Shown here piece by piece: positions 33,503 through 58,804 of a DNA stretch of 64,000 nt. Each line of letters starts with the position of its first letter. Within the stretch, counting starts at the first letter, position 1. The notes under the pieces were generated by a model that did not search any database, had not been told where the DNA came from, and was given only the letters and a program-made list of their open reading frames with translations. The stretch lies in IMG/VR virus record IMGVR_UViG_3300021378_000004. The stretch is one strand, 5' to 3'. Source of the stretch: a virus. Position numbers and translations under genes: made by a program.

Positions 33503-34087
33503 ATGGCACGTAAAAAAAGTATACATTATGTCAACAACTCTGATTTTAGTACAGCTGTAGTTGAATATGTTAAAACAGTAGATCATGCTAGAAAAACAGA
33601 TATCAACATTCCAACAGTACCAGATTATGTAGCTCAATGCTTTCTTAAAATAGCAGAAGGACTGTCTCATAAAGGAAACTTTATAAGGTATACATACAGA
33701 GAAGAAATGGTAATGGACGCAGTTGAAAATTGTTTAAAGGCAATAAGTAATTACAATTTAGAAGCAGCTACTAGAACTGGTAAACCAAATGCATTTGCAT
33801 ATTTTACACAGATAACATGGTATGCTTTTTTAAGAAGAATAGCAAAAGAAAAAAAACAACAAGAAATTAAAATGAAATATTTAACTAAATCTGGTTTAGA
33901 TAGTTTTGTTGATGTTGGTACCGAAGAAGTAGCAGCTTCGACTGCATTACATTTTGTAGATACATTAAAAGATAGAATTGCAAGAGTACGTAATACAGAC
34001 AGCGAAGTAAAAGAAATAGTTAAAAAAGAAAAAAAGAAACGTAAATCAAAATTAGCAGATTCTGATTTAAGTGAATTTATGCAATGA
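33503..34087 (+). CDS. gp55: Late sigma factor gp55
   Basis: HYVNN, F..YTYREEMV.DA.EN, NAFAYFTQI...AFLRRI.KEKKQ. Confidence 0.95.
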   Translation: MARKKSIHYVNNSDFSTAVVEYVKTVDHARKTDINIPTVPDYVAQCFLKIAEGLSHKGNFIRYTYREEMVMDAVENCLKAISNYNLEAATRTGKPNAFAYFTQITWYAFLRRIAKEKKQQEIKMKYLTKSGLDSFVDVGTEEVAASTALHFVDTLKDRIARVRNTDSEVKEIVKKEKKKRKSKLADSDLSEFMQ

Positions 34088-34506
34088 AGGTAGGCATTAC
34101 AGCATCTACATTTGATTTATTACACGCAGGTCATGTTGAAATGCTAAGAGAAGCAAAAGAACAATGTGATTATTTAATTTGTGCTTTACAGATTGATCCT
34201 TCAATCGACAGAGCAGAAAAAAATAAACCTGTTCAAAGTATAGTTGAAAGATATACACAACTAGCAGCTGTTAAGTTTGTAAATGAAGTTATTCCATATA
34301 TGTATGAATGCGATCTTGTTGATATTTTATCAATGAGAAGTATTGATGTACGTATATTAGGTGAAGAATATAGAGAAAAAGACTTTACTGGTAGAGATAT
34401 TTGTAAAGCACGTGATATAGAATTGTACTTTAATAAACGAGAACATAGATTTAGTACAAGTGATTTAAGAAAGAGAATAACAAATGAAAATAGCAATATT
34501 ATGTGA
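34084..34506 (+). CDS. Cytidylyltransferase (TagD/glycerol-3-phosphate cytidylyltransferase-like)
   Basis: TFDLLHAGH (HxGH), R...FSTS motif. Confidence 0.85.
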   Translation: MKVGITASTFDLLHAGHVEMLREAKEQCDYLICALQIDPSIDRAEKNKPVQSIVERYTQLAAVKFVNEVIPYMYECDLVDILSMRSIDVRILGEEYREKDFTGRDICKARDIELYFNKREHRFSTSDLRKRITNENSNIM

Positions 34507-42014: not shown

Positions 42015-42620
42015 ATGATTAATTTTAAAACATATTTAGAAGAGGCTGCCGGAAAAGGTTTAACTATATTTGACATAGATGAAACTATGTTTATAACTAA
42101 AGCAAAGGTACATGTGGTAAAAAATGGTAAAGTTATTAAAAAACTGGATAATCAAGAATTTAACACATATAAGAAAAAAGCTGGCGAAGATTACGACTTC
42201 GGCGAATTTAAAAACGCCGAGGTATTTAAGCGGACGTCCACGCCAATCGCAAGAATGATTAACAAAGTTAGAGCAATATTAAAAAATGCTACAAGAGCAG
42301 GATCTAAAGTTATTATTGTAACTGCAAGACCAAACTTTGACAACAAGAAAACATTTCTAGATACATTTAGAAAACAAGGAATCGACATAGACAAGATCTA
42401 TGTTGAACGTGCTGGTAACCTCGGAGGAGGCCCGGCCGCTGATAATAAGAAAGTAATCTTTAAGAAATACCTGGATCAAAAAATATATAAAAGAATAAGA
42501 TTATTTGATGATGCCATGTCTAACTTAAAGATGTTCTTATCATTACAAAAAGACTACCCCGATGTCTCATTCGAGGCATTCTTAGCAAAAGAAAATGGCT
42601 CTGTTTCAAGAGTAAGATAA
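42015..42620 (+). CDS. HAD-superfamily phosphatase
   Basis: Motif I FDIDET, motif II VTAR, Lys motif, motif IV FDD. Confidence 0.75.
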   Translation: MINFKTYLEEAAGKGLTIFDIDETMFITKAKVHVVKNGKVIKKLDNQEFNTYKKKAGEDYDFGEFKNAEVFKRTSTPIARMINKVRAILKNATRAGSKVIIVTARPNFDNKKTFLDTFRKQGIDIDKIYVERAGNLGGGPAADNKKVIFKKYLDQKIYKRIRLFDDAMSNLKMFLSLQKDYPDVSFEAFLAKENGSVSRVR

Positions 42621-44226: not shown

Positions 44227-46955
44227 TGGCATTTTATACCAACCTTTATCGATTCAAAAGTAACATATACTATCGCGGTTATTCATCTAACGGCGATAGA
44301 GTTACTAAAAAAGATCATTATGAACCAAAGTTCTATGTTACTACACCAGACGAAACTGGTTACAAAAGTATTGATGGTCATAATGTTGGATCAATAAATT
44401 TTAAAAGTATGTATGAAGCTGGACAATGGTTACGTGATAACCTCGAAGTTTCAGGTAGAAAAATTTATGGTAATAAAAGATATATTTCTCAGTATGTAAT
44501 GGATAAATTTCCAAATGATATTGAATTTGATCGTAGAGCAATTAACGTTGGTACATTTGATATTGAAACAGATTATGATGATGGCTTTCCACATCCTGAT
44601 CAAGCTGCTCATAAAATATTATCGATATCATATAAGTCTAGTAAATTTTCAACATATCATGTGTGGGGTTATGGTGACTTTGATACTGAAACAGCACTTA
44701 TAAGTGATGTTAAATATACTAAATGTAATAGCGAAGAAGAACTACTTGAAAAGTTTATAGAATTCTGGTCACATCCAGAAATTACACCTGACGTCATTAC
44801 AGGTTGGAATACAAGATTCTTCGATATACCTTACGTAATCAAACGTACATCAGATGTACTAGGTATAGAATACTTACACAAGTTTTCACCATATGGTTTA
44901 CAAATACCAGAACCTAGAAAGGTTATGTATCGCGGCAGAGAAAATCTAGTTTATGAAATTCCTGGTATTCAAACTTTAGACTACATGGAATTATTTCAAA
45001 AGTTTGGTTACACTTATGGTCCACAAGAATCATATGCATTGAATCATATTGCTTATGTTGTACTCGGTGAAAAGAAACTTTCATATGAAGAATCAGGTTC
45101 ACTTAAAAATCTTTATAAAGATGATTATCAAAAGTACATCGATTATAATATGAAAGACGTACAACTTGTTGATAGGCTCGAAGAAAAACTTGGACTTATT
45201 ACGTTGGCTATAACTATGGCCTACAAAGGTGGTGTTAATTTTCAAGACACATTTGGTGTAACTGCTATATGGGAATCAATTATTTTCAGAAAGCTTTATC
45301 AAAACAAAGTAATTACTCCTCTTACTCAAAAATATGATGATTATCAAATCATAGGTGCTACCGAAACATCAAAGAAAAATCCATCGCCTGCTTTTCGTGC
45401 AGAAGGTAAATCGCATAATATTGCTGGTGGTTATGTTAAAGATCCTGTCCCAGGTAAATACGAATGGGTAGTATCATTTGATTTAAATTCACTATATCCT
45501 AATATCATTGTGCAAAATAATATGTCACCAGAAACAATAGTCGAATATCCAAAACAACCTGAAGAACTTGCAAGAGCTGCAAATGAAACATATTATCGTA
45601 AAGACTTTCAAGGTGTACTTCCAAAAATTATTGAAGAATATTATGATGAACGTGTGTCTGTTAAAAATATGATGTTAGCTGCTAAATCTGAAATGCAAAA
45701 AGGTTATACATTTGAATTAGATAAAGAAATAAACAATCTAGAAAACAGACAAATGGCTATTAAAATTCTACTTAATAGTTTATATGGTGCTCTTGCTAAT
45801 AAACACTTTCTATATTTCAGACCATCACTTGCTGAAGGTGTAACACTTACTGGTCAAAAAGCAATTAAACATGCTCAAACAACAATGAATATTCAATTAA
45901 ATGATGTACTTAATATAAATTGGCGTAAAACTTCACTACCAGCTGTTTTAGATGAAAATTTTCATAAAAAAGGTATAGAATGGATAACTAATGAAAAACG
46001 TCACATAGAAATTCTTAACGATCCTGAACACAATTTACATTATGATAAAGAAAAAGAAATGTATTATACTAAACATTTTGAAAAAAAACCAGGATTTCAG
46101 ATTTATATGCCACTTGAAATATATATGACAGACTATGTTATCGCAATTGATACCGATTCTTTATACGTCAACTTTGGACCATTGGTAGAGAAATTTGCAC
46201 CAAATAATCCAGTTTTATTCTTAGACCAAATTTGTAAAGATCACTTCGAACCAGCAATTGCTAAAGCTTATAATGAATTCTTTAAAATGCACAATGCATA
46301 TAAAAACAGAATGGTTATGGCAAGAGAAGCAATATCAGATGTTGGTATATGGACTGCAAAGAAAAGATATATACTTAATGTACACAATAATGAAGGTGTA
46401 CAATATGCTGAACCTAAACTTAAGATTATGGGTATTGAAGCTATCAAGTCTTCTACACCAGAAATTGTACGTAATAAATTTAAAGAAGCATTTAAGCTTA
46501 TAATATCTGGTACTGAAAAAGAAACACAAGCTTTCATTGCAAAATTTAAAGCTGAATTTAAAAGTTTAAATCCAGAAGCTGTAGCTTTTCCACGTGGTGT
46601 TAGTAATATAACAGATTGGCATGATAGAAAAACTATATTTAAGAAAAGCTGTCCAATACATGTGCGTGGTTCATTACTACACAATTATTATCTTAAACAA
46701 AATAAACTTAATAACAAATATGAACTTATTCAAAATGGCGATAGAATTAAATTTGTATATTTAAAACTACCAAACTCTATAAAACAAAATATAGTATCAT
46801 TTAAAGATGTATTGCCTAAAGAATTAAAACTACATAATTATATTAACTATGATTTACAATTCGAGAAAACATTTATCGAACCACTAAATCTAATACTTAA
46901 CCCAATCGGCTGGTCAGCCGAAGAACAAGCAACACTGGAGGATTTTTTCGTATGA
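44226..46955 (+). CDS. gp43: Family B DNA polymerase gp43
   Basis: Exo DIET, GWN..FFD, YN..D; pol SFDLNSLYP, K...NSLYG, DTDS, KKRY. Confidence 0.97.
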   Translation: MAFYTNLYRFKSNIYYRGYSSNGDRVTKKDHYEPKFYVTTPDETGYKSIDGHNVGSINFKSMYEAGQWLRDNLEVSGRKIYGNKRYISQYVMDKFPNDIEFDRRAINVGTFDIETDYDDGFPHPDQAAHKILSISYKSSKFSTYHVWGYGDFDTETALISDVKYTKCNSEEELLEKFIEFWSHPEITPDVITGWNTRFFDIPYVIKRTSDVLGIEYLHKFSPYGLQIPEPRKVMYRGRENLVYEIPGIQTLDYMELFQKFGYTYGPQESYALNHIAYVVLGEKKLSYEESGSLKNLYKDDYQKYIDYNMKDVQLVDRLEEKLGLITLAITMAYKGGVNFQDTFGVTAIWESIIFRKLYQNKVITPLTQKYDDYQIIGATETSKKNPSPAFRAEGKSHNIAGGYVKDPVPGKYEWVVSFDLNSLYPNIIVQNNMSPETIVEYPKQPEELARAANETYYRKDFQGVLPKIIEEYYDERVSVKNMMLAAKSEMQKGYTFELDKEINNLENRQMAIKILLNSLYGALANKHFLYFRPSLAEGVTLTGQKAIKHAQTTMNIQLNDVLNINWRKTSLPAVLDENFHKKGIEWITNEKRHIEILNDPEHNLHYDKEKEMYYTKHFEKKPGFQIYMPLEIYMTDYVIAIDTDSLYVNFGPLVEKFAPNNPVLFLDQICKDHFEPAIAKAYNEFFKMHNAYKNRMVMAREAISDVGIWTAKKRYILNVHNNEGVQYAEPKLKIMGIEAIKSSTPEIVRNKFKEAFKLIISGTEKETQAFIAKFKAEFKSLNPEAVAFPRGVSNITDWHDRKTIFKKSCPIHVRGSLLHNYYLKQNKLNNKYELIQNGDRIKFVYLKLPNSIKQNIVSFKDVLPKELKLHNYINYDLQFEKTFIEPLNLILNPIGWSAEEQATLEDFFV

Positions 46956-47368
46956 GTACGAACTGGTTTAAAGACATGCAAGCCATGCATAAGAAATATG
47001 GCGTAGATGAATGGATGAAAAAAGAAAAAGTATCTGATTGGTCTAGACTTAATAAGTTTATGGATTTTAGAATTAAGATGATGCAAGAAGAACTTGATGA
47101 AACTAAAACAGCATTTAAAAAAGGAGATGCTGAAGAAGTTGTAGATGGCATTATAGACATGTGTGTCTTTGCTATCGGTACATTAGAAGTATTTGGCGTT
47201 GATGCTAATAAAGCTTGGGACCAAGTATTAAAAGCGAATATGTCAAAAGAAGTTGGCATTAAAGAAGGCAGACCTAATCCTCTTGGTTTACCAGATTTGG
47301 TAAAGCCTGAAGGTTGGGAAGGTCCTACACATAAGGGAAATCATGGAAATATCACTGACTCTTTTTAA
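46952..47368 (+). CDS. All-alpha (MazG-like) NTP pyrophosphohydrolase, candidate dCTPase/dUTPase
   Basis: EE..E, E..D...D, ANMSK motifs. Confidence 0.75.
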   Translation: MSTNWFKDMQAMHKKYGVDEWMKKEKVSDWSRLNKFMDFRIKMMQEELDETKTAFKKGDAEEVVDGIIDMCVFAIGTLEVFGVDANKAWDQVLKANMSKEVGIKEGRPNPLGLPDLVKPEGWEGPTHKGNHGNITDSF

Positions 47369-49163: not shown

Positions 49164-49405
49164 TGGCTAAAGAGATGATTGAAGATGTTGTAAGATTTGA
49201 TAACATTATATATGTTGGCGACTTAGTAGAAACCAAGTATGGCGCTTGTAGAATTAAAAAGATAGAGTTAATGCCTGAAAAAAGACATTTCTCTAAGTGT
49301 GGAATAAATGTAAATAAAATGTTTACATCCATGATAGATCAGTGTATAATAGATCTAGATAACAGACATTTTGTATATGGAGATGAAATTGAAAGAATCG
49401 GTTAG
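49163..49405 (+). CDS. Hypothetical protein
   Basis: SD AGGAG; TAATG coupling. Confidence 0.65.
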   Translation: MAKEMIEDVVRFDNIIYVGDLVETKYGACRIKKIELMPEKRHFSKCGINVNKMFTSMIDQCIIDLDNRHFVYGDEIERIG

Positions 49406-49712
49406 AGTATTAAATGAATGTGTTGCATTACAGAATAAAAAGTCTGATGACTATCAGAATAAAGATTCGAATGTAACTCAAGCAATGCATTATCGTCGTG
49501 GTGTTGATAGCATACACGATATAATTCAAGGTAAATGCTATCGTGCACAATCTATATTAGAAAGTCAAGGTGATCCAAACTTTGAATCACTCGAAGATAC
49601 TTACAAAGATATAATTAATTATTGTTCATTTGCAGTATCTTATATGCGTGGTAAGATGGACGGCCAAAAAATGGATAGAGATATGTACAATAAGTTAAAA
49701 GGTAAAATATAA
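49383..49712 (+). CDS. Nucleotide-modification-associated helical protein (DUF1599/Nmad1-like)
   Basis: K..DY near N-terminus and EDTY.D.INY near C-terminus; adjacent to gp42-like gene. Confidence 0.6.
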   Translation: MKLKESVRVLNECVALQNKKSDDYQNKDSNVTQAMHYRRGVDSIHDIIQGKCYRAQSILESQGDPNFESLEDTYKDIINYCSFAVSYMRGKMDGQKMDRDMYNKLKGKI

Positions 49713-50401
49713 TGATTAGTTATGATATGATAAAAACTGATGATATACGATCTTACTTCTATACTGAACTAAGACAAGAAAATTTTATTACTGATAAAAA
49801 TGGCGGTAAACTAATTGAAATGCTTGGTGCATGTTTTATTGCAGATAAACCATCTATATTTGGTACACCTAAAGAAGATTATATTAAAAGAGAAATTGCT
49901 TGGTATAGCAGTCAAATTGGTAATGTGAATGCAATAGAAGGTGATACACCTGAAGCATGGAAATTAGCTGCTAATGATTATGGTCAAGTCAATTCAAACT
50001 ATGGTCAACTTATTTGGTCTGATAAATACTTCAACCAATACGGTAGAACATTAGATGAATTGCTACAAACCCCAGATGGCCGTAGAGCCACTATGGTTTA
50101 TAACAGACCAAGCATATGGGAGGAATACAATGAAGAAGGTAAAAGTGATTTCATATGCACTAATGCCGTTACTTATTATATACGTAATGATAAGTTATTC
50201 GCCGTTGTTCAAATGCGCTCAAACGATGTCGTGTTCGGATACAAGAATGACTATGCTTGGCAGCTTTATGTTCTAGAATTATTGGTTGAAGACTACAATC
50301 AATGTAAGAACGAAAGTATAGAACCAATTTCATGTGGTGATATTATATGGCAAGTTCAAAATATGCATGTTTACGAAAGGCATTTTCATCTTGTCAAATA
50401 A
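49712..50401 (+). CDS. gp42: dCMP hydroxymethylase-like (T4 gp42 family, thymidylate synthase fold)
   Basis: NSNYG, RRA...Y.RPS, SDFICTN (catalytic Cys), MRSNDVVFGYKNDYAWQ, HVY.RHF, closely matching T4 gp42 as recalled; Asp in ND is the dCMP specificity residue. Confidence 0.85.
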   Translation: MISYDMIKTDDIRSYFYTELRQENFITDKNGGKLIEMLGACFIADKPSIFGTPKEDYIKREIAWYSSQIGNVNAIEGDTPEAWKLAANDYGQVNSNYGQLIWSDKYFNQYGRTLDELLQTPDGRRATMVYNRPSIWEEYNEEGKSDFICTNAVTYYIRNDKLFAVVQMRSNDVVFGYKNDYAWQLYVLELLVEDYNQCKNESIEPISCGDIIWQVQNMHVYERHFHLVK

Positions 50402-50828
50402 GTGGGATAAAAGATTTTTAGAAATGGCAAAGCTTGTAGCTTCGTGGTCAAAAGATCCATCAACACAAGTTGGTTCAGTTGCTGTAAGAAATAGAACTGT
50501 TATAGCTCAAGGTTATAATGGTTTTCCTCGAGGCGTAGATGATCATGAATTATATTATTTAAACAGAGCAATAAAATACAAACGTATAGTTCATGCAGAA
50601 ATGAATGCAATTTATAATGCAGCAGAAAATGGTGTATCATTAAAAGATTCTACAATATATGTGATAGGATTGCCAATATGCCATGATTGTGCAAAAGGCC
50701 TAATACAAGCTGGCATAAGTAGAGTTGTTACGCCAGAACAAGAAATACCAGAAAATTGGCAAGATTCAATAACAACTTCAATATCAATGTTTAAAGAAGC
50801 TGGTGTAATATGGGATTGGATAAAATGA
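50391..50828 (+). CDS. cd: dCMP deaminase
   Basis: SKDPSTQVG, GYNG.PRG, HAE.NA, C..C; likely TTG start at 50391. Confidence 0.9.
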   Translation: MSNKWDKRFLEMAKLVASWSKDPSTQVGSVAVRNRTVIAQGYNGFPRGVDDHELYYLNRAIKYKRIVHAEMNAIYNAAENGVSLKDSTIYVIGLPICHDCAKGLIQAGISRVVTPEQEIPENWQDSITTSISMFKEAGVIWDWIK

Positions 50829-50841
50829 AAAGGATAACATT

Positions 50842-51954
50842 ATGAAAATACTTGTAACAGGAATGAATAAAAATCAAGTCACAGAGAATTTTTATTTAAA
50901 ACAACAATTAAGAGTAGTGCCTTCACATTATTCTTTACTACGATGTTTAAGAGATATGGGTCATACTGTTGAACAAAGATTAGTGAAAATTGGAGAAGAC
51001 TTATCTTCATATGATAGAGTTATTTGTTTCTTAGCTTCACCAAGACAAGCGTTACAACTTACATTTTATAATGGTTTATGGGCAATACACGATACTCCAA
51101 AAGATAAATTAATATTGGCATTTGATGATTGGCAAACAGATGGAATATTCAAAGGCATTCTTTCATGTACTGATAAAGAATCGCTTTTAAAAGAATTTAC
51201 TATAAATCAAAGCACAACAGATCCAGATATTAGTAGAGAGTTATTAGAACCTCATACTGATGTTTTATTAGATGCAATAAAATACATTGGTGAAAAGAAA
51301 TCACGTATTTTACTTTCTGTATTTGCTGGTGGTGATATGACTAAACTTATTGAATACGATCCAAGTTTGTTATTTGGTTATAATCCAAATCCTTATCATA
51401 GAAATAGAGTACCAGGTAATAGAAGTGATATTCAAAAAAGCGAAATGAATTTCATGGAAGCACAACTTATACCAACTAAAGAAGAAGATGAAGTATCTTG
51501 GTTTAACAAAGAAAAATGTTTTAACTTTGCTTCTTTAGTTCAAGGTAGAACTGCTAAATGGTTAAAGAAACAAAATATTAGTAAATGGAAAATAGAATAT
51601 TTTGGTTCAAGAAAAGAAAAACAAAGACGCTTGTCTGAAGAAGACATGTGTAAAGTTTATGGAGAACAATGGGGTTGCTTAATGCCAGGGTATGAACATG
51701 CCGGATCTGGTTGGTGGAGAGCAAGACCTTTACAAGTTACTGATGCTGGTTCAATCTTGATTGGCGATTACAACGAACTTATAGTATTATTTGATAATGA
51801 AGAAGCAGCATCAGTAAAAGCTTCTGATCTTGAAGAATTATCAGACTACCAACTAATACAGCTAGCCGCACTACAAAAAAGCTCGATATATACTAAACAT
51901 CCTTTAAATAAAGAAACACAACAGAATGAATTAAAGAAAGCTTTAAACATATGA
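50842..51954 (+). CDS. Putative DNA glycosyltransferase, distant T4 beta-glucosyltransferase-like (GT-B)
   Basis: Collinear motifs with recalled T4 BGT: MKI, VPS, (D/E)MG, YDR(V/L)I, IE(Y/F)FG...EKQ, R......ILI.D, C-terminal Q...KKA; similar length. Confidence 0.6.
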   Translation: MKILVTGMNKNQVTENFYLKQQLRVVPSHYSLLRCLRDMGHTVEQRLVKIGEDLSSYDRVICFLASPRQALQLTFYNGLWAIHDTPKDKLILAFDDWQTDGIFKGILSCTDKESLLKEFTINQSTTDPDISRELLEPHTDVLLDAIKYIGEKKSRILLSVFAGGDMTKLIEYDPSLLFGYNPNPYHRNRVPGNRSDIQKSEMNFMEAQLIPTKEEDEVSWFNKEKCFNFASLVQGRTAKWLKKQNISKWKIEYFGSRKEKQRRLSEEDMCKVYGEQWGCLMPGYEHAGSGWWRARPLQVTDAGSILIGDYNELIVLFDNEEAASVKASDLEELSDYQLIQLAALQKSSIYTKHPLNKETQQNELKKALNI

Positions 51955-52961
51955 AAATATTAGTAGTAGGTGCAGGTTTCTCTGGTGCAGTAGTTGCACA
52001 CAAATTAGCAAACGCTGGCCATGATATACACGTCATAGATGAAAGAAACCACATTGGTGGTAATGCTTATGACTATACAAATAAAAGAGGAATACGAATT
52101 CATAAGTATGGTCCTCATTTATTTCATACAAACAACGAAAAAGTTTATAACTGGGTTACACAATTTGGCGAATGGGAACCATACAAACATAAAGTCAAAG
52201 CACAGCTTGACGATGGTAGGTATGTAACATTACCAGTTAACAAAGAAACACAAGATATAGTAGGTAAAGAAAATATTGTAAGTACTTTCTTTGCACCATA
52301 CACATATAAAATGTGGGGTAAAACTATAGAAGAATTAGATCCATCTATTCTTAAAAGAGTACCAGTACGTGATGACGATAACGAATATTACTTTCCTAAT
52401 GACGAATATCAAGTATTGCCAAAAAATGGTTACACCGCGGTATTTGAAGAAATACTAGATCATAAAAATATTAAAGTAGATTTATCAGTAAGATTTAGTA
52501 GAAGTATGGAAAAAGATTTTGATCATATTTTTAATGCTATGCCAATAGATGATTACTTTAATTATTCTTATGGTGCCTTGCCATATCGCTCAATTAAGTT
52601 TCATCATGTTGACATACCTATGACAAAAGTATTACCGACTGGTACAGTTAATTTTACACATGATGGTCCTTATACTCGAGTCACTGAATGGAAGAATCTA
52701 CCGTGTCATGGTATAAATAATCAATACACAACACTCACATACGAAGAACCTTGTGATTACCTAGTCAACAATCAAGAAAGATATTATCCAGTAAAAGATG
52801 TTGATGGTAACAACCGAATTAAATACGAACAATATAAAAAACTAATTCGTTCAAATATGACGTTTATAGGTCGTTGTGGAATGTATGTCTACGTAGATAT
52901 GCATCAAGCAATTAATTCAGCACTAGCTATATCTGATAAATTTATGGAGAAAAATACATGA
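51951..52961 (+). CDS. glf: UDP-galactopyranose mutase
   Basis: GAGFSG FAD motif, HIGGNAYD, HKYGPH.FHT, YTR..E.K, YYP, GR...Y.Y.DM. Confidence 0.92.
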   Translation: MKILVVGAGFSGAVVAHKLANAGHDIHVIDERNHIGGNAYDYTNKRGIRIHKYGPHLFHTNNEKVYNWVTQFGEWEPYKHKVKAQLDDGRYVTLPVNKETQDIVGKENIVSTFFAPYTYKMWGKTIEELDPSILKRVPVRDDDNEYYFPNDEYQVLPKNGYTAVFEEILDHKNIKVDLSVRFSRSMEKDFDHIFNAMPIDDYFNYSYGALPYRSIKFHHVDIPMTKVLPTGTVNFTHDGPYTRVTEWKNLPCHGINNQYTTLTYEEPCDYLVNNQERYYPVKDVDGNNRIKYEQYKKLIRSNMTFIGRCGMYVYVDMHQAINSALAISDKFMEKNT

Positions 52962-53707
52962 AAGTAGCAATCACAGGATCAAGAGGTTTCATTGGAAGTC
53001 ACCTTAAAACAAGACTTGAATCAGAAGGACATGAAGTTGTTGAATGGGATTTAAAACAAAATCCAGCTAAATGCATAAAAGATTTTACTCCTGATGAAAT
53101 TAACTATTGTATACACCTTGCAGCATACGCTGATGTGAGAGCAAGTATAGAAGATCCTCAAAAATATTGGAGAAATAATGTAGAGAATACTACAAGAATA
53201 CAATTAATTTGTCATCATAATAATATACCATTACTATATGCATCTTCATCATGTATTCATAATTGGTGGTTATCACCATATGGCGTAAGTAAAAAAGTAA
53301 ATGAAGAAACAGCTTATGAAAAACAAGTTGGATTAAGATTTACTACAGTTTATGGTGATGGCGCTAGAGAGTCAATGCTTATCGGTAAACTCATTGATGG
53401 TACAGTTCAGTATCTCACGAGACACGTAAGAGACTTTGTACATGTTAGTGATGTTGTAGATGCAATACTTATTCTTATGAGTAAAGATATCGGTATGTTA
53501 AAACCTGCTTATGATATCGGTACTGGTGAAGGAAACGTTGTAGAAGAACTTGGTATCATTGCTGGTTGGGAAGGTATCGAAGTACGAGATGGCGATGCTT
53601 GTGAAGCACAAGATAATACTGCAGATATAACAGAGATGAAAGCATTAGGGTGGAATCCTAAAGTTAAAGTAGATGAATATCTTATTACTAATACAGTACC
53701 TCACTAA
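52958..53707 (+). CDS. NAD-dependent NDP-sugar epimerase/dehydratase (extended SDR)
   Basis: TGSRGFIG, HLAA, ASSS, YGVSK, RF..VYG, RDFVHV.D. Confidence 0.9.
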   Translation: MKVAITGSRGFIGSHLKTRLESEGHEVVEWDLKQNPAKCIKDFTPDEINYCIHLAAYADVRASIEDPQKYWRNNVENTTRIQLICHHNNIPLLYASSSCIHNWWLSPYGVSKKVNEETAYEKQVGLRFTTVYGDGARESMLIGKLIDGTVQYLTRHVRDFVHVSDVVDAILILMSKDIGMLKPAYDIGTGEGNVVEELGIIAGWEGIEVRDGDACEAQDNTADITEMKALGWNPKVKVDEYLITNTVPH

Positions 53708-54906
53708 TGAGATTCGCCAGTATAATACCACTTATAGGTGGAGCAACACTTGCAATGCAAAATGTTTTGCAAAGAAAGCCAGAGTATTTATTAAGTTATG
53801 ATGTTTTTAAAGAAAATGATAATCACTTGGTACAATATTATAAAGGAGCAGTTCCCTATCATCTTTATGGAGACAATGGGGTTCCTAACTTACCTAATGT
53901 TGAGGTTATTAATACTGTATGCCCATGTGCTGGTCTTAGCAGTCTTAGTCCTTCAGCTAGTAGCGATGCTGCTGCTAACGATTGGATGCTTACCTCTGCT
54001 AATCTTGTCTTGGGTACACTCAAACCTCACGTATTCTGGGGAGAAAACGCACCAGGACTTGCTTCGAACATCGGAAAACCAGTTGTTGCAAAACTTAGAA
54101 AAGTTGCAGAAAAGTTTGGGTACACTTTCTCAATATATAAAACGAAGTCTATCCTTCATGGATTAGGTCAAGTAAGAAACAGAACTTTCTATTTCTTTTG
54201 GAAAGGTGATAAGGTACCTAAGTTTGAATTTATAAAAAGAGAACATGAGAAAATTGATGAGACTATTAGATCAATAAAAAGAAGATCTGACGATCCAATG
54301 AATATTCTTACTAATAAAACAACGCCTTCAGACAATCCATTTTATAAGTACGTTCTAGAAGAAATGTGTGGTGGAATTGGTCATAAAGAATTTGTTGAAA
54401 AGAAAATAACAAGATCTCAAAACGCAATGGATTACATCGAATGGAACGGTGGAAACTATAAAAGCGTATCAAAATGGATGGATGCTCAAGGATTTGATAA
54501 ACTTGCTGAAAGATGTAGAAAAATACATAGTAAGTTAGCTCAAGGCGGAAACATTATGAGAAAGCTTGTGCATTTTCCAAAAGAAACTATTGGTGCATTT
54601 GTTGGCCATATGCCAAATCAACTTACACATCCAGATGAAGATAGATTTCTGACTGTAAGAGAATGTATGTCAATAATGAAATTACCTGAAGACTTTACGT
54701 TACAAGGTGGACTAAAGAATTTAAATCATATATGCCAAAACGTGCCTGTTACTACAGCCGAAGATATGGCTGAGCATGTACAAAAGTTTGTAGACGGTAG
54801 ATTAGGAAATCAAATGCTAGATACAAATTTTTTAATTCAAGATAACACAAATAAAAAGTTAAATTTTGAAAAAAACAGTGTACAATTAGATGCTTTTATG
54901 GTATAA
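53707..54906 (+). CDS. C5-cytosine DNA methyltransferase-like protein with atypical motif I
   Basis: PCAGLS, ENA, Q.R.R, R.LTVRE...M..PEDF, QNVP; motif I reads IPLIGG rather than FxGxGG. Confidence 0.75.
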   Translation: MRFASIIPLIGGATLAMQNVLQRKPEYLLSYDVFKENDNHLVQYYKGAVPYHLYGDNGVPNLPNVEVINTVCPCAGLSSLSPSASSDAAANDWMLTSANLVLGTLKPHVFWGENAPGLASNIGKPVVAKLRKVAEKFGYTFSIYKTKSILHGLGQVRNRTFYFFWKGDKVPKFEFIKREHEKIDETIRSIKRRSDDPMNILTNKTTPSDNPFYKYVLEEMCGGIGHKEFVEKKITRSQNAMDYIEWNGGNYKSVSKWMDAQGFDKLAERCRKIHSKLAQGGNIMRKLVHFPKETIGAFVGHMPNQLTHPDEDRFLTVRECMSIMKLPEDFTLQGGLKNLNHICQNVPVTTAEDMAEHVQKFVDGRLGNQMLDTNFLIQDNTNKKLNFEKNSVQLDAFMV

Positions 54907-56779: not shown

Positions 56780-58136
56780 TTTAGAACAAACTATATTACG
56801 TAATCTTTTAACAGATGAAGATTACATGCGTAAGGTGTTACCGTTTATAAAGCCTGATTATTTTGTTGGAATATACAGAGTATTGTTTAATGAAGCTGGT
56901 AAGTTTGTTGCTAAATATAATAAGTTGCCAACTGGCGAATCATTTAAGATTGAATTAGATCAATCAGAAAAATTAAGTGAAGAGCAATATAGCATGGCAA
57001 TTGATATTGTACCACAACTTTTTAATAAAAATGATGTTGATGAAAATTGGTTACTTGATACTACTGAAAAGTGGTGTCAAGATCGAGCAATATACAACGC
57101 TATTATGGAATCAATATCAATTATTGATGGTAAACACGAACAATTAACAAAAGGTGCTTTACCTGATTTATTAAGTAAAGCACTTGGTGTAGGATTTGAT
57201 CTTAAAGTTGGTCACGACTATACAGAAAATGTGGAAGAAAGATATGACTTCTATCATACAGAAGAAGATAGACTACCATTTGATTTAGAATACTTTAATA
57301 CTATCACTAAAGGTGGTGTTCCACGTAAAACTCTTAATATTGCTTTGGCTGGTACTGGTGTTGGTAAATCTCTTTTTATGTGTCACGTTGCCGCTTCATC
57401 TTTAGTTCAAGGCCATAACGTATTATACATTACAATGGAAATGGCTGAAGAAAGAATAGCAGAAAGAATCGATGCTAACTTACTTAATGTACCTATTGAT
57501 CAATTAGATAAATTATCAAAAGATATGTTTACTACAAAAGTAAATGACATTGCGCGTAAAACAACTGGTAAATTAATCATAAAAGAATATCCTACTGGTT
57601 CTGCACATTCAGGTCATTTCAGAGCATTACTTAATGAACTTAAATTAAAAAGACAATTTGAACCAGATCTTATCTTTATTGATTATCTTAATATATGTTC
57701 AAGTTCTAGAATGAAAGCAATGGGAGGATCAATCAATTCATACACTTACATTAAAGCAATTGCTGAAGAATTACGTGGCCTTGCGGTCGAATTTAACGTA
57801 CCGATCTTTTCTGCAACGCAAACGACTCGTTCTGGTTTTAGTAACTCGGATGTTGGGCTTGAAGATACAAGTGAGTCTTTTGGATTACCCGCAACAGCCG
57901 ATCTAATGTTTGCATTGATATCTACCGAAGAACTAGAAAAACAAGGCCAGTTTATGGTTAAACAATTAAAGAACAGATATAATGATCCAACAGCTCATAA
58001 AAGATTTGTGGTTGGTGTAGATCGTAGTAAAATGCGACTATACGATGTAGAAGAAACAGAACAAACATTAACAGACGATTCGCCAGTATTCGATAAAACT
58101 CCAACTGGCGAAAGATTTAAGGATTTTAAGTTATGA
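56769..58136 (+). CDS. gp41: Replicative helicase gp41
   Basis: AGTGVGKS, EMAEE.IAERIDAN, DYLNI, SESFGLPATAD, KNRY. Confidence 0.96.
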   Translation: MPTNLEQTILRNLLTDEDYMRKVLPFIKPDYFVGIYRVLFNEAGKFVAKYNKLPTGESFKIELDQSEKLSEEQYSMAIDIVPQLFNKNDVDENWLLDTTEKWCQDRAIYNAIMESISIIDGKHEQLTKGALPDLLSKALGVGFDLKVGHDYTENVEERYDFYHTEEDRLPFDLEYFNTITKGGVPRKTLNIALAGTGVGKSLFMCHVAASSLVQGHNVLYITMEMAEERIAERIDANLLNVPIDQLDKLSKDMFTTKVNDIARKTTGKLIIKEYPTGSAHSGHFRALLNELKLKRQFEPDLIFIDYLNICSSSRMKAMGGSINSYTYIKAIAEELRGLAVEFNVPIFSATQTTRSGFSNSDVGLEDTSESFGLPATADLMFALISTEELEKQGQFMVKQLKNRYNDPTAHKRFVVGVDRSKMRLYDVEETEQTLTDDSPVFDKTPTGERFKDFKL

Positions 58137-58804
58137 TAGCAAAATTAATTTCATATAGTAAACCATCTGAGTTTGAAGCGTATCAAGATGAATGGAATAT
58201 AAAATCTTGTCAAGATCTTATAGCATATTGTGCTAGAGTTTCTAATCCATCTGGTCAAGAAAACACAGCAACAAATGAAAAACTTTTAAAATATTTGATT
58301 AAACATCAGCATTGGTCACCGTTTGAAATGGCGAGTGCTTGTATTGAAATCAATACAACTAGAGATATAGCAAGGCAGATATTAAGACACCGCAGTTTTA
58401 GTTTCCAAGAGTTTAGTCAAAGATATGCAAATCCAGTAAAGGAGTTAGAATTTGTCACACGAGAAGCGAGAATGCAAGATAATAAGAATAGACAAAGTAG
58501 TATCGAAGTTGATGACGAAGCTTTCCAACTCGATTGGGAAAGAGAACAGCAAAGAGTTATCTGGATGTGTAGGCAAGTTTACAATACAGCCATCAAAAAA
58601 GGAATTGCAAAAGAAGTTGCTAGAGCAGTTTTACCAGAAGGATTAACTACATCTAGATTATATATGAATGGTACTATAAGAAGTTGGATTCATTTTATTG
58701 AATTAAGATCTTCTAATGGTACTCAAAAAGAATGTAGTGAAGTTGCTATGGCATGTGCACAAGCGATATCAAAAATATTTTCAATGGAAGAATTTATAAA
58801 ATGA
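58133..58804 (+). CDS. thyX: Flavin-dependent thymidylate synthase
   Basis: HWSPFE, RQILRHRSFSFQEFSQRY signature. Confidence 0.95.
   Translation: MIAKLISYSKPSEFEAYQDEWNIKSCQDLIAYCARVSNPSGQENTATNEKLLKYLIKHQHWSPFEMASACIEINTTRDIARQILRHRSFSFQEFSQRYANPVKELEFVTREARMQDNKNRQSSIEVDDEAFQLDWEREQQRVIWMCRQVYNTAIKKGIAKEVARAVLPEGLTTSRLYMNGTIRSWIHFIELRSSNGTQKECSEVAMACAQAISKIFSMEEFIK

Follow-up and report, generated by a model that had tools for sequence, protein, structure and literature searches.

In gene clusters that combine a cytosine C5-methyltransferase, a TET (5mYOX) dioxygenase and a glycosyltransferase, the methylase makes 5-methylcytosine (5mC), which TET oxidises to 5-hydroxymethylcytosine (5hmC, hereafter hmC) after replication (PMC8256090; bioRxiv 10.1101/2023.12.21.572611). 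Another enzyme of the methyltransferase family, CmoX, is a GC-specific phage DNA cytosine C5-carboxymethyltransferase; like M.HhaI it binds the ribose and adenine of its cofactor through an acid and the residues of a GD pair, and its R350 contacts the carboxymethyl group of carboxy-S-adenosylmethionine (carboxy-SAM) (PMC12783734), from which it follows that this motif-X position tunes the cofactor. For contigs with modified cytosine more broadly, the trio of MazG, an Asp-type ThyA homologue and a deaminase is a published marker (bioRxiv 10.1101/2024.12.05.627091). Here, we consider a gene for a C5-cytosine methyltransferase-like protein of 399 residues, which lies at 53707..54906 on the + strand of IMG/VR virus record IMGVR_UViG_3300021378_000004. 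The whole stretch analysed, 64,000 nucleotides long and referred to below as the window, is a fragment of a marine T4-like myovirus with about 33% GC and every gene on the + strand. A sequence-only reading of this DNA had described an enzyme with a degenerate SAM motif inside an hmC pathway, which either protects residual cytosine or has been repurposed to act on hmC. Our own reading, which we favour tentatively, is that the protein may be an active DNA cytosine-C5 enzyme, integral to operons for hypermodification based on the dCMP hydroxymethylase gp42, where it would patch cytosine that escaped conversion to hmC.

Judged by profile, fold and catalytic motifs the protein is a member of the C5-methyltransferase superfamily, although it lacks the canonical motif I and the motif-X Asn and falls short of the TIGR00675 cut-off. 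It matches PF00145 over residues 1-359 (E 9.7e-19; 68.4 bits against a cut-off of 22) and reaches 34.6 bits with TIGR00675 (NCBIfam dcm), for which the cut-off is 100.65; when the family profile was compared with E. coli Dcm by hhalign, only motifs IV-VIII aligned, at 39% probability. An AlphaFold2 (AF2) model made from 109 homologues has a mean predicted local distance difference test (pLDDT) score of 95.8 and contains the two-domain methyltransferase fold, including the target-recognition domain. We matched this model to known structures with VIA and Foldseek. Over model residues 1-368, VIA gave a Z of 25.9 with M.HaeIII (1dct; root mean square deviation 3.0, 278 residues aligned), 25.2 with both M.HhaI and DNMT1, and 23.4 with CmoX, and Dnmt2-type structures were also among the matches at Z 19-20, lower than the DNA methyltransferases. 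The window protein therefore has the same fold as the PF00145 enzymes M.HhaI and M.HaeIII (Z 25-26, about 280-300 residues aligned), with which it has motifs IV (PC), VI (EN), VIII (QxRxR) and IX (RE) in common.

The sequence-only reading had called the PC, EN and QxRxR motifs intact, and the translation bears this out, with conservation of 99-100%. Pro73-Cys74 of motif IV (within CPCAGLS) is encoded at 53923..53928, E113-N114-A115-P116 of motif VI at 54043..54054 and Q155-V-R157-N-R159 of motif VIII at 54169..54183, all on the + strand, as is motif IX, R318-E319, which was likewise read from the translation. Conservation was scored in 124 diverse full-length family members that are 30-53% identical to the window protein; C74 is kept in 99% of these, and E113, R157 and R159 are invariant. 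Motifs I and X are where the family departs from canonical C5-methyltransferases. In place of the canonical FxGxGG the family has (I/V)PL(I/V)GG, which in the window protein is I7-P8-L9-I10-G11-G12 (53725..53742, + strand; read from the translation and family alignments). The IPLIGG noted earlier is thus real, and the same type of motif proved to be conserved when homologues were checked (P8 98%, L9 97%, G11 98%, G12 96%). For motif X, the earlier description of QNVP replacing GNAV was right in that a variant is present, C343-Q344-N345-V346-P347 (54733..54747, + strand), but the change is more precisely one of GN to CQ with the Asn shifted one place later: profile alignments with M.HhaI, M.HaeIII and CmoX put Q344 on the canonical motif-X Asn (N304 in HhaI, R350 in CmoX) and N345 one residue past it. 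Q344 is conserved in 98% and N345 in 95%. Also conserved and specific to this family are N91, W93, which is a Trp at the motif V position where canonical enzymes have Leu, an extra N37-D/E38-x-H40, and Q378 and N380 within a C-terminal extension that canonical enzymes lack. The window's clade is unlike all others at A13, G117 and N158 beside the active site, where the other clades have E, R and D.

Because P-L-(I/V)-G-G and Q-N-V-P are 95-98% conserved across a large phage-only subfamily, we read these variants as a subfamily signature and not as decay. On this evidence the catalytic half of the enzyme appears untouched, and the cofactor half appears rebuilt yet under strong selection. Motifs I to III were mapped from the Pfam range, DSSP and the VIA residue offset, in which model residue 1 corresponds to HhaI residue 12, so that I7 falls on F18, P8 on A19 and L9 on G20. 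Mapped by secondary structure and alignment and not by coordinates, position 32 is the equivalent of the cofactor-binding acid E40 of HhaI and E47 of CmoX; it is E or D in 101 of the 118 sequences (86%) that make up the window's own lineage (at least 62% identity). The window protein itself has D32 and, by the same kind of mapping, a G55-D56 that matches the GD of motif III (HhaI D60), a pair kept in its lineage as well. The adenosine-binding part of the cofactor pocket therefore looks retained in the window phage, and W93 could take over the adenine stacking of the lost Phe. The word "degenerate" in the earlier description does not stand, given that the variants are among the most conserved positions of the subfamily and the putative adenosine-binding acids are kept in the window lineage.

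The second feature of the family is its genomic company. We collected more than 100 related loci, in part by a search seeded with a 14-sequence alignment, and mapped reference proteins onto them by tblastn. Of these, 34 extend more than 7 kb 5' of the methylase-like gene, and 33 of the 34 contain a ThyA-like gene. Asp occupies both diagnostic positions (discussed below) in every one of the 49 ThyA-like genes identified. The sequence-only reading had named homologues common in phages lacking gp42 as a finding that would tell against it, and we see the opposite, with the gene nearly always beside a gp42-like gene. In two loci (L089 and L112) there was no ThyA-like gene within the flank fetched. 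As a control we took 80 loci around a CmoX-type methylase with canonical FAGGGG and NEF motifs, likewise from marine T4-like phages, a phylogenetically narrow set. In the flanks fetched, none contained a ThyA-like gene, including the 20 loci of at least 11 kb. The usual layout is MazG, gp42-like gene, deaminase, a variable cassette and then the methylase-like gene. The cassette may consist of the 370-residue glycosyltransferase, Glf and an epimerase (the window's type); of AGT and an epimerase; of an AGT-like gene, an epimerase-like gene and a UDP-glucose dehydrogenase; of an inositol-1-phosphate-synthase-like gene, a small open reading frame (ORF), an HMUDK-like DNA kinase and a 345-residue protein; or of a 414-residue putative glycosyltransferase with or without a nucleotidyltransferase/kinase. 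With at least six different tailoring cassettes, only the MazG-like, gp42-like and deaminase genes are constant partners of the methylase-like gene.

This linkage recurs on about ten divergent phage backbones and so goes beyond T4-like synteny before uvsX. The methylase-like protein of L089, 53% identical to the window's, is followed by a tail fibre gene, and that of L091 (39%) belongs to a phage with Pol III alpha in which ThyA is followed by SIS and ribulose-phosphate epimerase genes and then by the methylase-like gene and an epimerase. More distant members occur in the orders AGT, methylase-like gene, ThyA, deaminase (L113, 31%), ThyA, deaminase, NTP-transferase and then the methylase-like gene (L114, 33%), and Topo I, AGT, methylase-like gene, ThyA (L115, 35%). 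In Pseudoalteromonas phage vB_Psh_XG4 (about 31%) an Asp-type ThyA gene, HAD, an NTP-transferase/kinase and two putative glycosyltransferases precede the methylase-like gene, and in cyanophage S-TIM54 (about 30%) a gene annotated as ThyA, with Asp at the N177 position, lies 2 kb off.

How might such an enzyme act in a phage that very probably makes hmC and adds a furanose sugar to it? Where hmC is made, no C5-H is left for a methylase. On the reading we favour, an adenosyl cofactor (SAM or a close analogue) would be bound in the remodelled pocket, and the enzyme would alkylate C5 of those cytosines that arrive from the nucleotide pool without a hydroxymethyl group. Candidate targets are early-replicated DNA, repair or recombination tracts and host-derived DNA, and the result would be a second protective layer on top of the (galacto)furanosyl-hmC that the other genes of the operon would provide. 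We prefer alkylation from an adenosyl cofactor because the putative adenosine-binding acids persist in the window lineage, unmodified cytosine as the substrate because every solved relative alkylates C5 of unmodified cytosine, and a role independent of the cassette because the only constant partners are the three genes named above. Several observations weigh against this. A gp42-type enzyme working with a MazG-like pyrophosphatase should leave very little cytosine, and selection for patching should then be weak. Three cofactor-contact positions are altered family-wide (F18 to I/V, G20 to L and N304 to Q), and the wider family mostly lacks the acid at position 32, which just about 26% of its sequences have. 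A homologue is present in only 8 of 50,697 phage records, and enteric T-even phages do without one. Lastly, the gene travels with the modification island and its cassette type and not with the replication core or phage backbone: cassette type can be placed on a tree of 59 methylase-like proteins with 8 changes (minimum 4, shuffled mean about 30), whereas the UvsX tree for the same loci requires 17, and in L042, where UvsX is 99% identical to that of the window, the methylase-like protein is only 67% identical and the cassette is of the AGT type. Patching, if it does occur, would mean that marine phages do not achieve complete hmC substitution through the nucleotide pool and have a back-up for it that works on the DNA itself.

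Such co-inheritance fits functional coupling, and equally simple physical linkage, and it is one of the points in favour of the main rival idea, that the enzyme has been repurposed for hmC or an activated derivative of it as a core tailoring step of hypermodification, which we regard as possible though somewhat doubtful. By this route Cys74 would add to C6 and the leaving of 5-CH2-OX (where OX is a hydroxyl, phosphate or sugar) would give an exocyclic methylene, to which a nucleophile would be added, or the group would be exchanged or removed. The near-obligate linkage to gp42-like genes across the divergent backbones would be explained, as would the position of the gene, which is always last in the variable cassette, kinase-type included, with its immediate predecessor being either a putative glycosyltransferase, AGT-like or otherwise (in L113, L115, L112 and L114), or the kinase cassette INOS-HMUDK-U345. 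The agreement of the methylase-like tree with cassette type and the altered SAM-contact positions in motifs I, II and X are also in line with it, and there is precedent in that C5-methyltransferases destabilise C5 substituents in vitro, including loss of the hydroxymethyl group (PMC11347137). Set against these points, the putative adenosine-binding acids are kept in the window lineage and the pocket is strongly conserved and not filled in, whilst physical linkage alone explains why the gene is inherited with its cassette. Nor does glycosylation of hmC by a GT-B enzyme need activation at C6, as T4 AGT and BGT glycosylate hmC without it. To our knowledge, methyltransferases have so far shown the Cys-C6 reaction on hmC in vitro only, as a side activity. 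That a natural DNA enzyme has turned this chemistry on hmC, or on its phosphorylated or glycosylated forms, so as to activate, exchange or remove the 5-methylene substituent as a core step of hypermodification, seems to us rather doubtful; were it true, this would be a new class of DNA-modifying enzyme and a possible tool for hmC-directed derivatisation or sequencing.

If one considers instead that the cytosine is unmodified and the cofactor unusual, the closest comparison is with CmoX (PDB 8YF3; PMC12783734), the best single-sequence PDB match of the window protein. A reaction like that of CmoX with carboxy-SAM, in which C5 receives a non-methyl group from an analogue of SAM, would suit both this match and the replacement of the motif-X Asn, which is the Arg that contacts the carboxymethyl group in CmoX and Gln in 98% of the family. 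The two are alike in being phage-specific C5-methyltransferase-like proteins in a hypermodification context, in lacking the Gln of PCQ and in having replaced the motif-X Asn, and their target-recognition domains can be aligned over a C-terminal part. CmoX, though, has the canonical F25, E47/F48 and D69, SPPC, R350 and a CmoA neighbour, where the window family has CPCA, Q344 and gp42-like neighbours. The SPPC and motif-X Arg that define CmoX are absent, there is no CmoA-like gene among the annotated neighbours, and no gene for cofactor synthesis (such as CmoA) is conserved in these operons, so we hold transfer of another alkyl group to be quite unlikely. A target other than phage DNA, be it host cytosine DNA, with host shut-off or the provoking of host methyl-dependent nucleases as its purpose, or RNA as with Dnmt2, also strikes us as unlikely. 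Specificity for unsubstituted cytosine would, we infer, select host DNA in the infected cell, and Dnmt2-type structures do match the fold; DNA methyltransferases nonetheless outscore Dnmt2, and the inheritance of the gene with cassette type would be left unexplained. That the protein has lost catalysis altogether, and survives as a relic or serves only as a structural DNA binder, could be argued from the non-canonical motifs I and X, and is highly improbable when C74 is 99% conserved, E113, R157 and R159 are invariant and the variant motifs themselves are kept at 95-98% among proteins of 30-53% identity. Whichever reading holds, the changes of F to I/V, G to L and Asn to Gln would show, beside the precedent of CmoX, that the cofactor pocket of C5-methyltransferases can be rebuilt.

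The operon that the gene closes comprises seven closely spaced genes (49371 to 54906), and the hmC pathway that the sequence-only reading saw around the gene is well supported by it. The first gene, at 49371..49712 (+ strand), encodes a MazG/PRA-PH-like NTP pyrophosphatase of 113 residues (phrog_1485, and phrog_18404 'hydrolase') whose homologue in L003 carries PF01503 PRA-PH; it is conserved 5' of the ThyA-like gene in most related loci, and its product is a candidate dCTPase. Ahead of it, at 49322-49350, is a promoter-like site (TTTACA-17-TATAAT, 11/12 matches), of a kind whose total in our scan is no more than chance. There are in fact two MazG-like pyrophosphatase genes within 3 kb, at 46952-47368 and 49371-49712, of which only the second is conserved before the gp42-like gene. 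The gp42-type dCMP hydroxymethylase, a ThyA homologue of 229 residues (49712..50401, + strand; PF00303), is 50% identical over its full length to the dCMP hydroxymethylase of Tequatrovirus. Published residue rules hold that Asp at the position of E. coli N177 makes the enzyme dCMP-specific and that D169N is diagnostic of a 5-hydroxy-dCMP synthase (PMC13326640). The window's gp42-type protein, in its motif RSNDVVFGYKND, retains the counterpart of D169 and carries Asp at that of N177, and we predict it to be dCMP-specific and not a 5-hydroxy-dCMP synthase. Consistent with a role as a hydroxymethylase, a separate flavin-dependent ThyX for dTMP synthesis is encoded at 58133-58804, 4.4 kb downstream. 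For the hm-dCMP kinase (gp1), the window offers a weak P-loop kinase match only, at 42015-42620. Next in the operon is a dCMP deaminase (50334..50828, + strand; PF00383, E 3.7e-22) with a listed GTG start, downstream of which its true start probably lies.

The remaining genes are those that would modify hmC further. At 50842..51954 (+ strand) lies a GT-B fold glycosyltransferase of 370 residues, a predicted DNA hmC glycosyltransferase with no Pfam match, whose AF2 model (pLDDT 91.7) finds T4 beta-glucosyltransferase 1nzd as its best PDB match (E 1e-6, TMq 0.54) and is likewise matched by T4 AGT. In Erwinia phage FBB1 and Morganella phage Rgz1, a gene for Glf or arabinose-5-phosphate isomerase adjoins that of a homologue. 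A complex prediction for the glycosyltransferase with the methylase-like protein scored 0.00, 'no answer', and counts neither way. UDP-galactopyranose mutase (Glf) follows at 51951..52961 (+ strand; PF03275, E 5.9e-52), and then a short SDR nucleotide-sugar epimerase of 249 residues (52958..53707, + strand; PF01370, E 4.3e-26), for which the best NCBIfam match is GalE, under its cut-off. The epimerase gene overlaps the methylase-like gene by one base, the stop of the one and the ATG of the other forming TAATG, and the methylase-like gene is thus translationally coupled to the end of the hmC-type operon. It is the presence of Glf from which a furanose is predicted, and the combination of BGT-like GT-B enzyme, Glf and short epimerase (50842-53707) predicts furanosyl, probably galactofuranosyl, hmC. 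Use of UDP-Galf has been proposed for Rhizobium phage RL38J1, there on 5-hydroxycytosine (PMC13326640). Elsewhere in the window, the recognised genes are those for tail sheath, gp43 polymerase, clamp, clamp loader, gp55, RegA, UvsX, a DnaB-like helicase and ThyX. Adjoining gp55 is a small cytidylyl/adenylyl-transferase-like gene (34084-34506; heptose-1-phosphate adenylyltransferase PHROG) whose product may be one more enzyme of sugar-nucleotide metabolism, encoded apart from the operon.

The hmC pathway of T4 consists of the gp56 dCTPase, gp42, Cd and the alpha- and beta-glucosyltransferases. The operon parallels it with an orthologue of gp42 (50% identity), a deaminase for dCMP, a pyrophosphatase of the MazG-like kind and a BGT-like or AGT-like glycosyltransferase; the differences are that T-even coliphages have no C5-methyltransferase-like gene and that a furanose is predicted here. 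Like the TET clusters, it houses a gene of the C5-methyltransferase family among genes for cytosine glycosylation. The annotated clusters showed no dioxygenase, however, and we reject a TET-dependent route; hmC would here be expected before replication, from the gp42-type enzyme. A 5-hydroxy-dCMP (5hoC) pathway was also considered and rejected, the diagnostic D169N being absent in 49 of 49 ThyA-like genes.

The family is very abundant in ocean viromes, with thousands of sequences, and canonical chemistry offers it no obvious substrate. A word-indexed search returned 2449 clusters at 90% identity, many of them from Tara and other marine metagenomes on contigs of up to 150 kb, and an exhaustive HMMER search returned 797 clusters at 50% identity, 242 of them with E below 1e-30. 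Among 185,579 prokaryotic species genomes there were only 17 loci, all on contigs of metagenome-assembled genomes with phage genes (UvsX, gp42-like), and the PL(I/V)GG-type subfamily is therefore essentially confined to phages. A cognate endonuclease was never found beside family genes, the contigs being phage-like only. Some longer members have gained a CXXC or C2H2 zinc finger, or C-terminal regions of great length that carry no annotation (P0214, 598 residues; P0192, 1462 residues), and these fusions were not informative. Megablast of the operon against the 50,697 phage records gave no match, so the window does not come from a known phage in culture, and we found no paper describing the subfamily; a survey of pelagimyophages reports one group with two thymidylate synthases and a deaminase and mentions no methylase (PMC7029224).

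Several observations on other carriers are worth recording. The vB_Psh_XG4 genes lie in the first 6.6 kb of an unannotated record (L002:100-6580), and this phage is a cultured carrier of the family. The annotated 'ThyA' of S-TIM54 (L001:5105-5947) has Asp at the N177 position (RSNDMATGVPLD) and a predicted dCMP substrate, so cyanophages of the S-TIM5 group may carry modified cytosine. The kinase cassette, at L006:4199-8004, comprises the inositol-1-phosphate-synthase-like gene, a 135-residue ORF, HMUDK_hel (of the 5-hydroxymethyldeoxyuridine (5-hmdU) DNA kinase family) and the 345-residue protein, and sits between an Asp-type ThyA homologue and the methylase-like gene; it occurs also in L007, L008, L033, L037, L069, L089, L097-L099 and L103. 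This placement suggests kinase-based hypermodification of 5hmC rather than 5-hydroxymethyluracil (5hmU), of which we found no description. Finally, in Synechococcus phage RN05-S (L116:1839-3678) a 'methyltransferase' and a 'DNA methylase' resemble the CmoA/CmoX pair (SPPC, GRMVPP), from which we predict that the DNA of this phage contains 5-carboxymethylcytosine.

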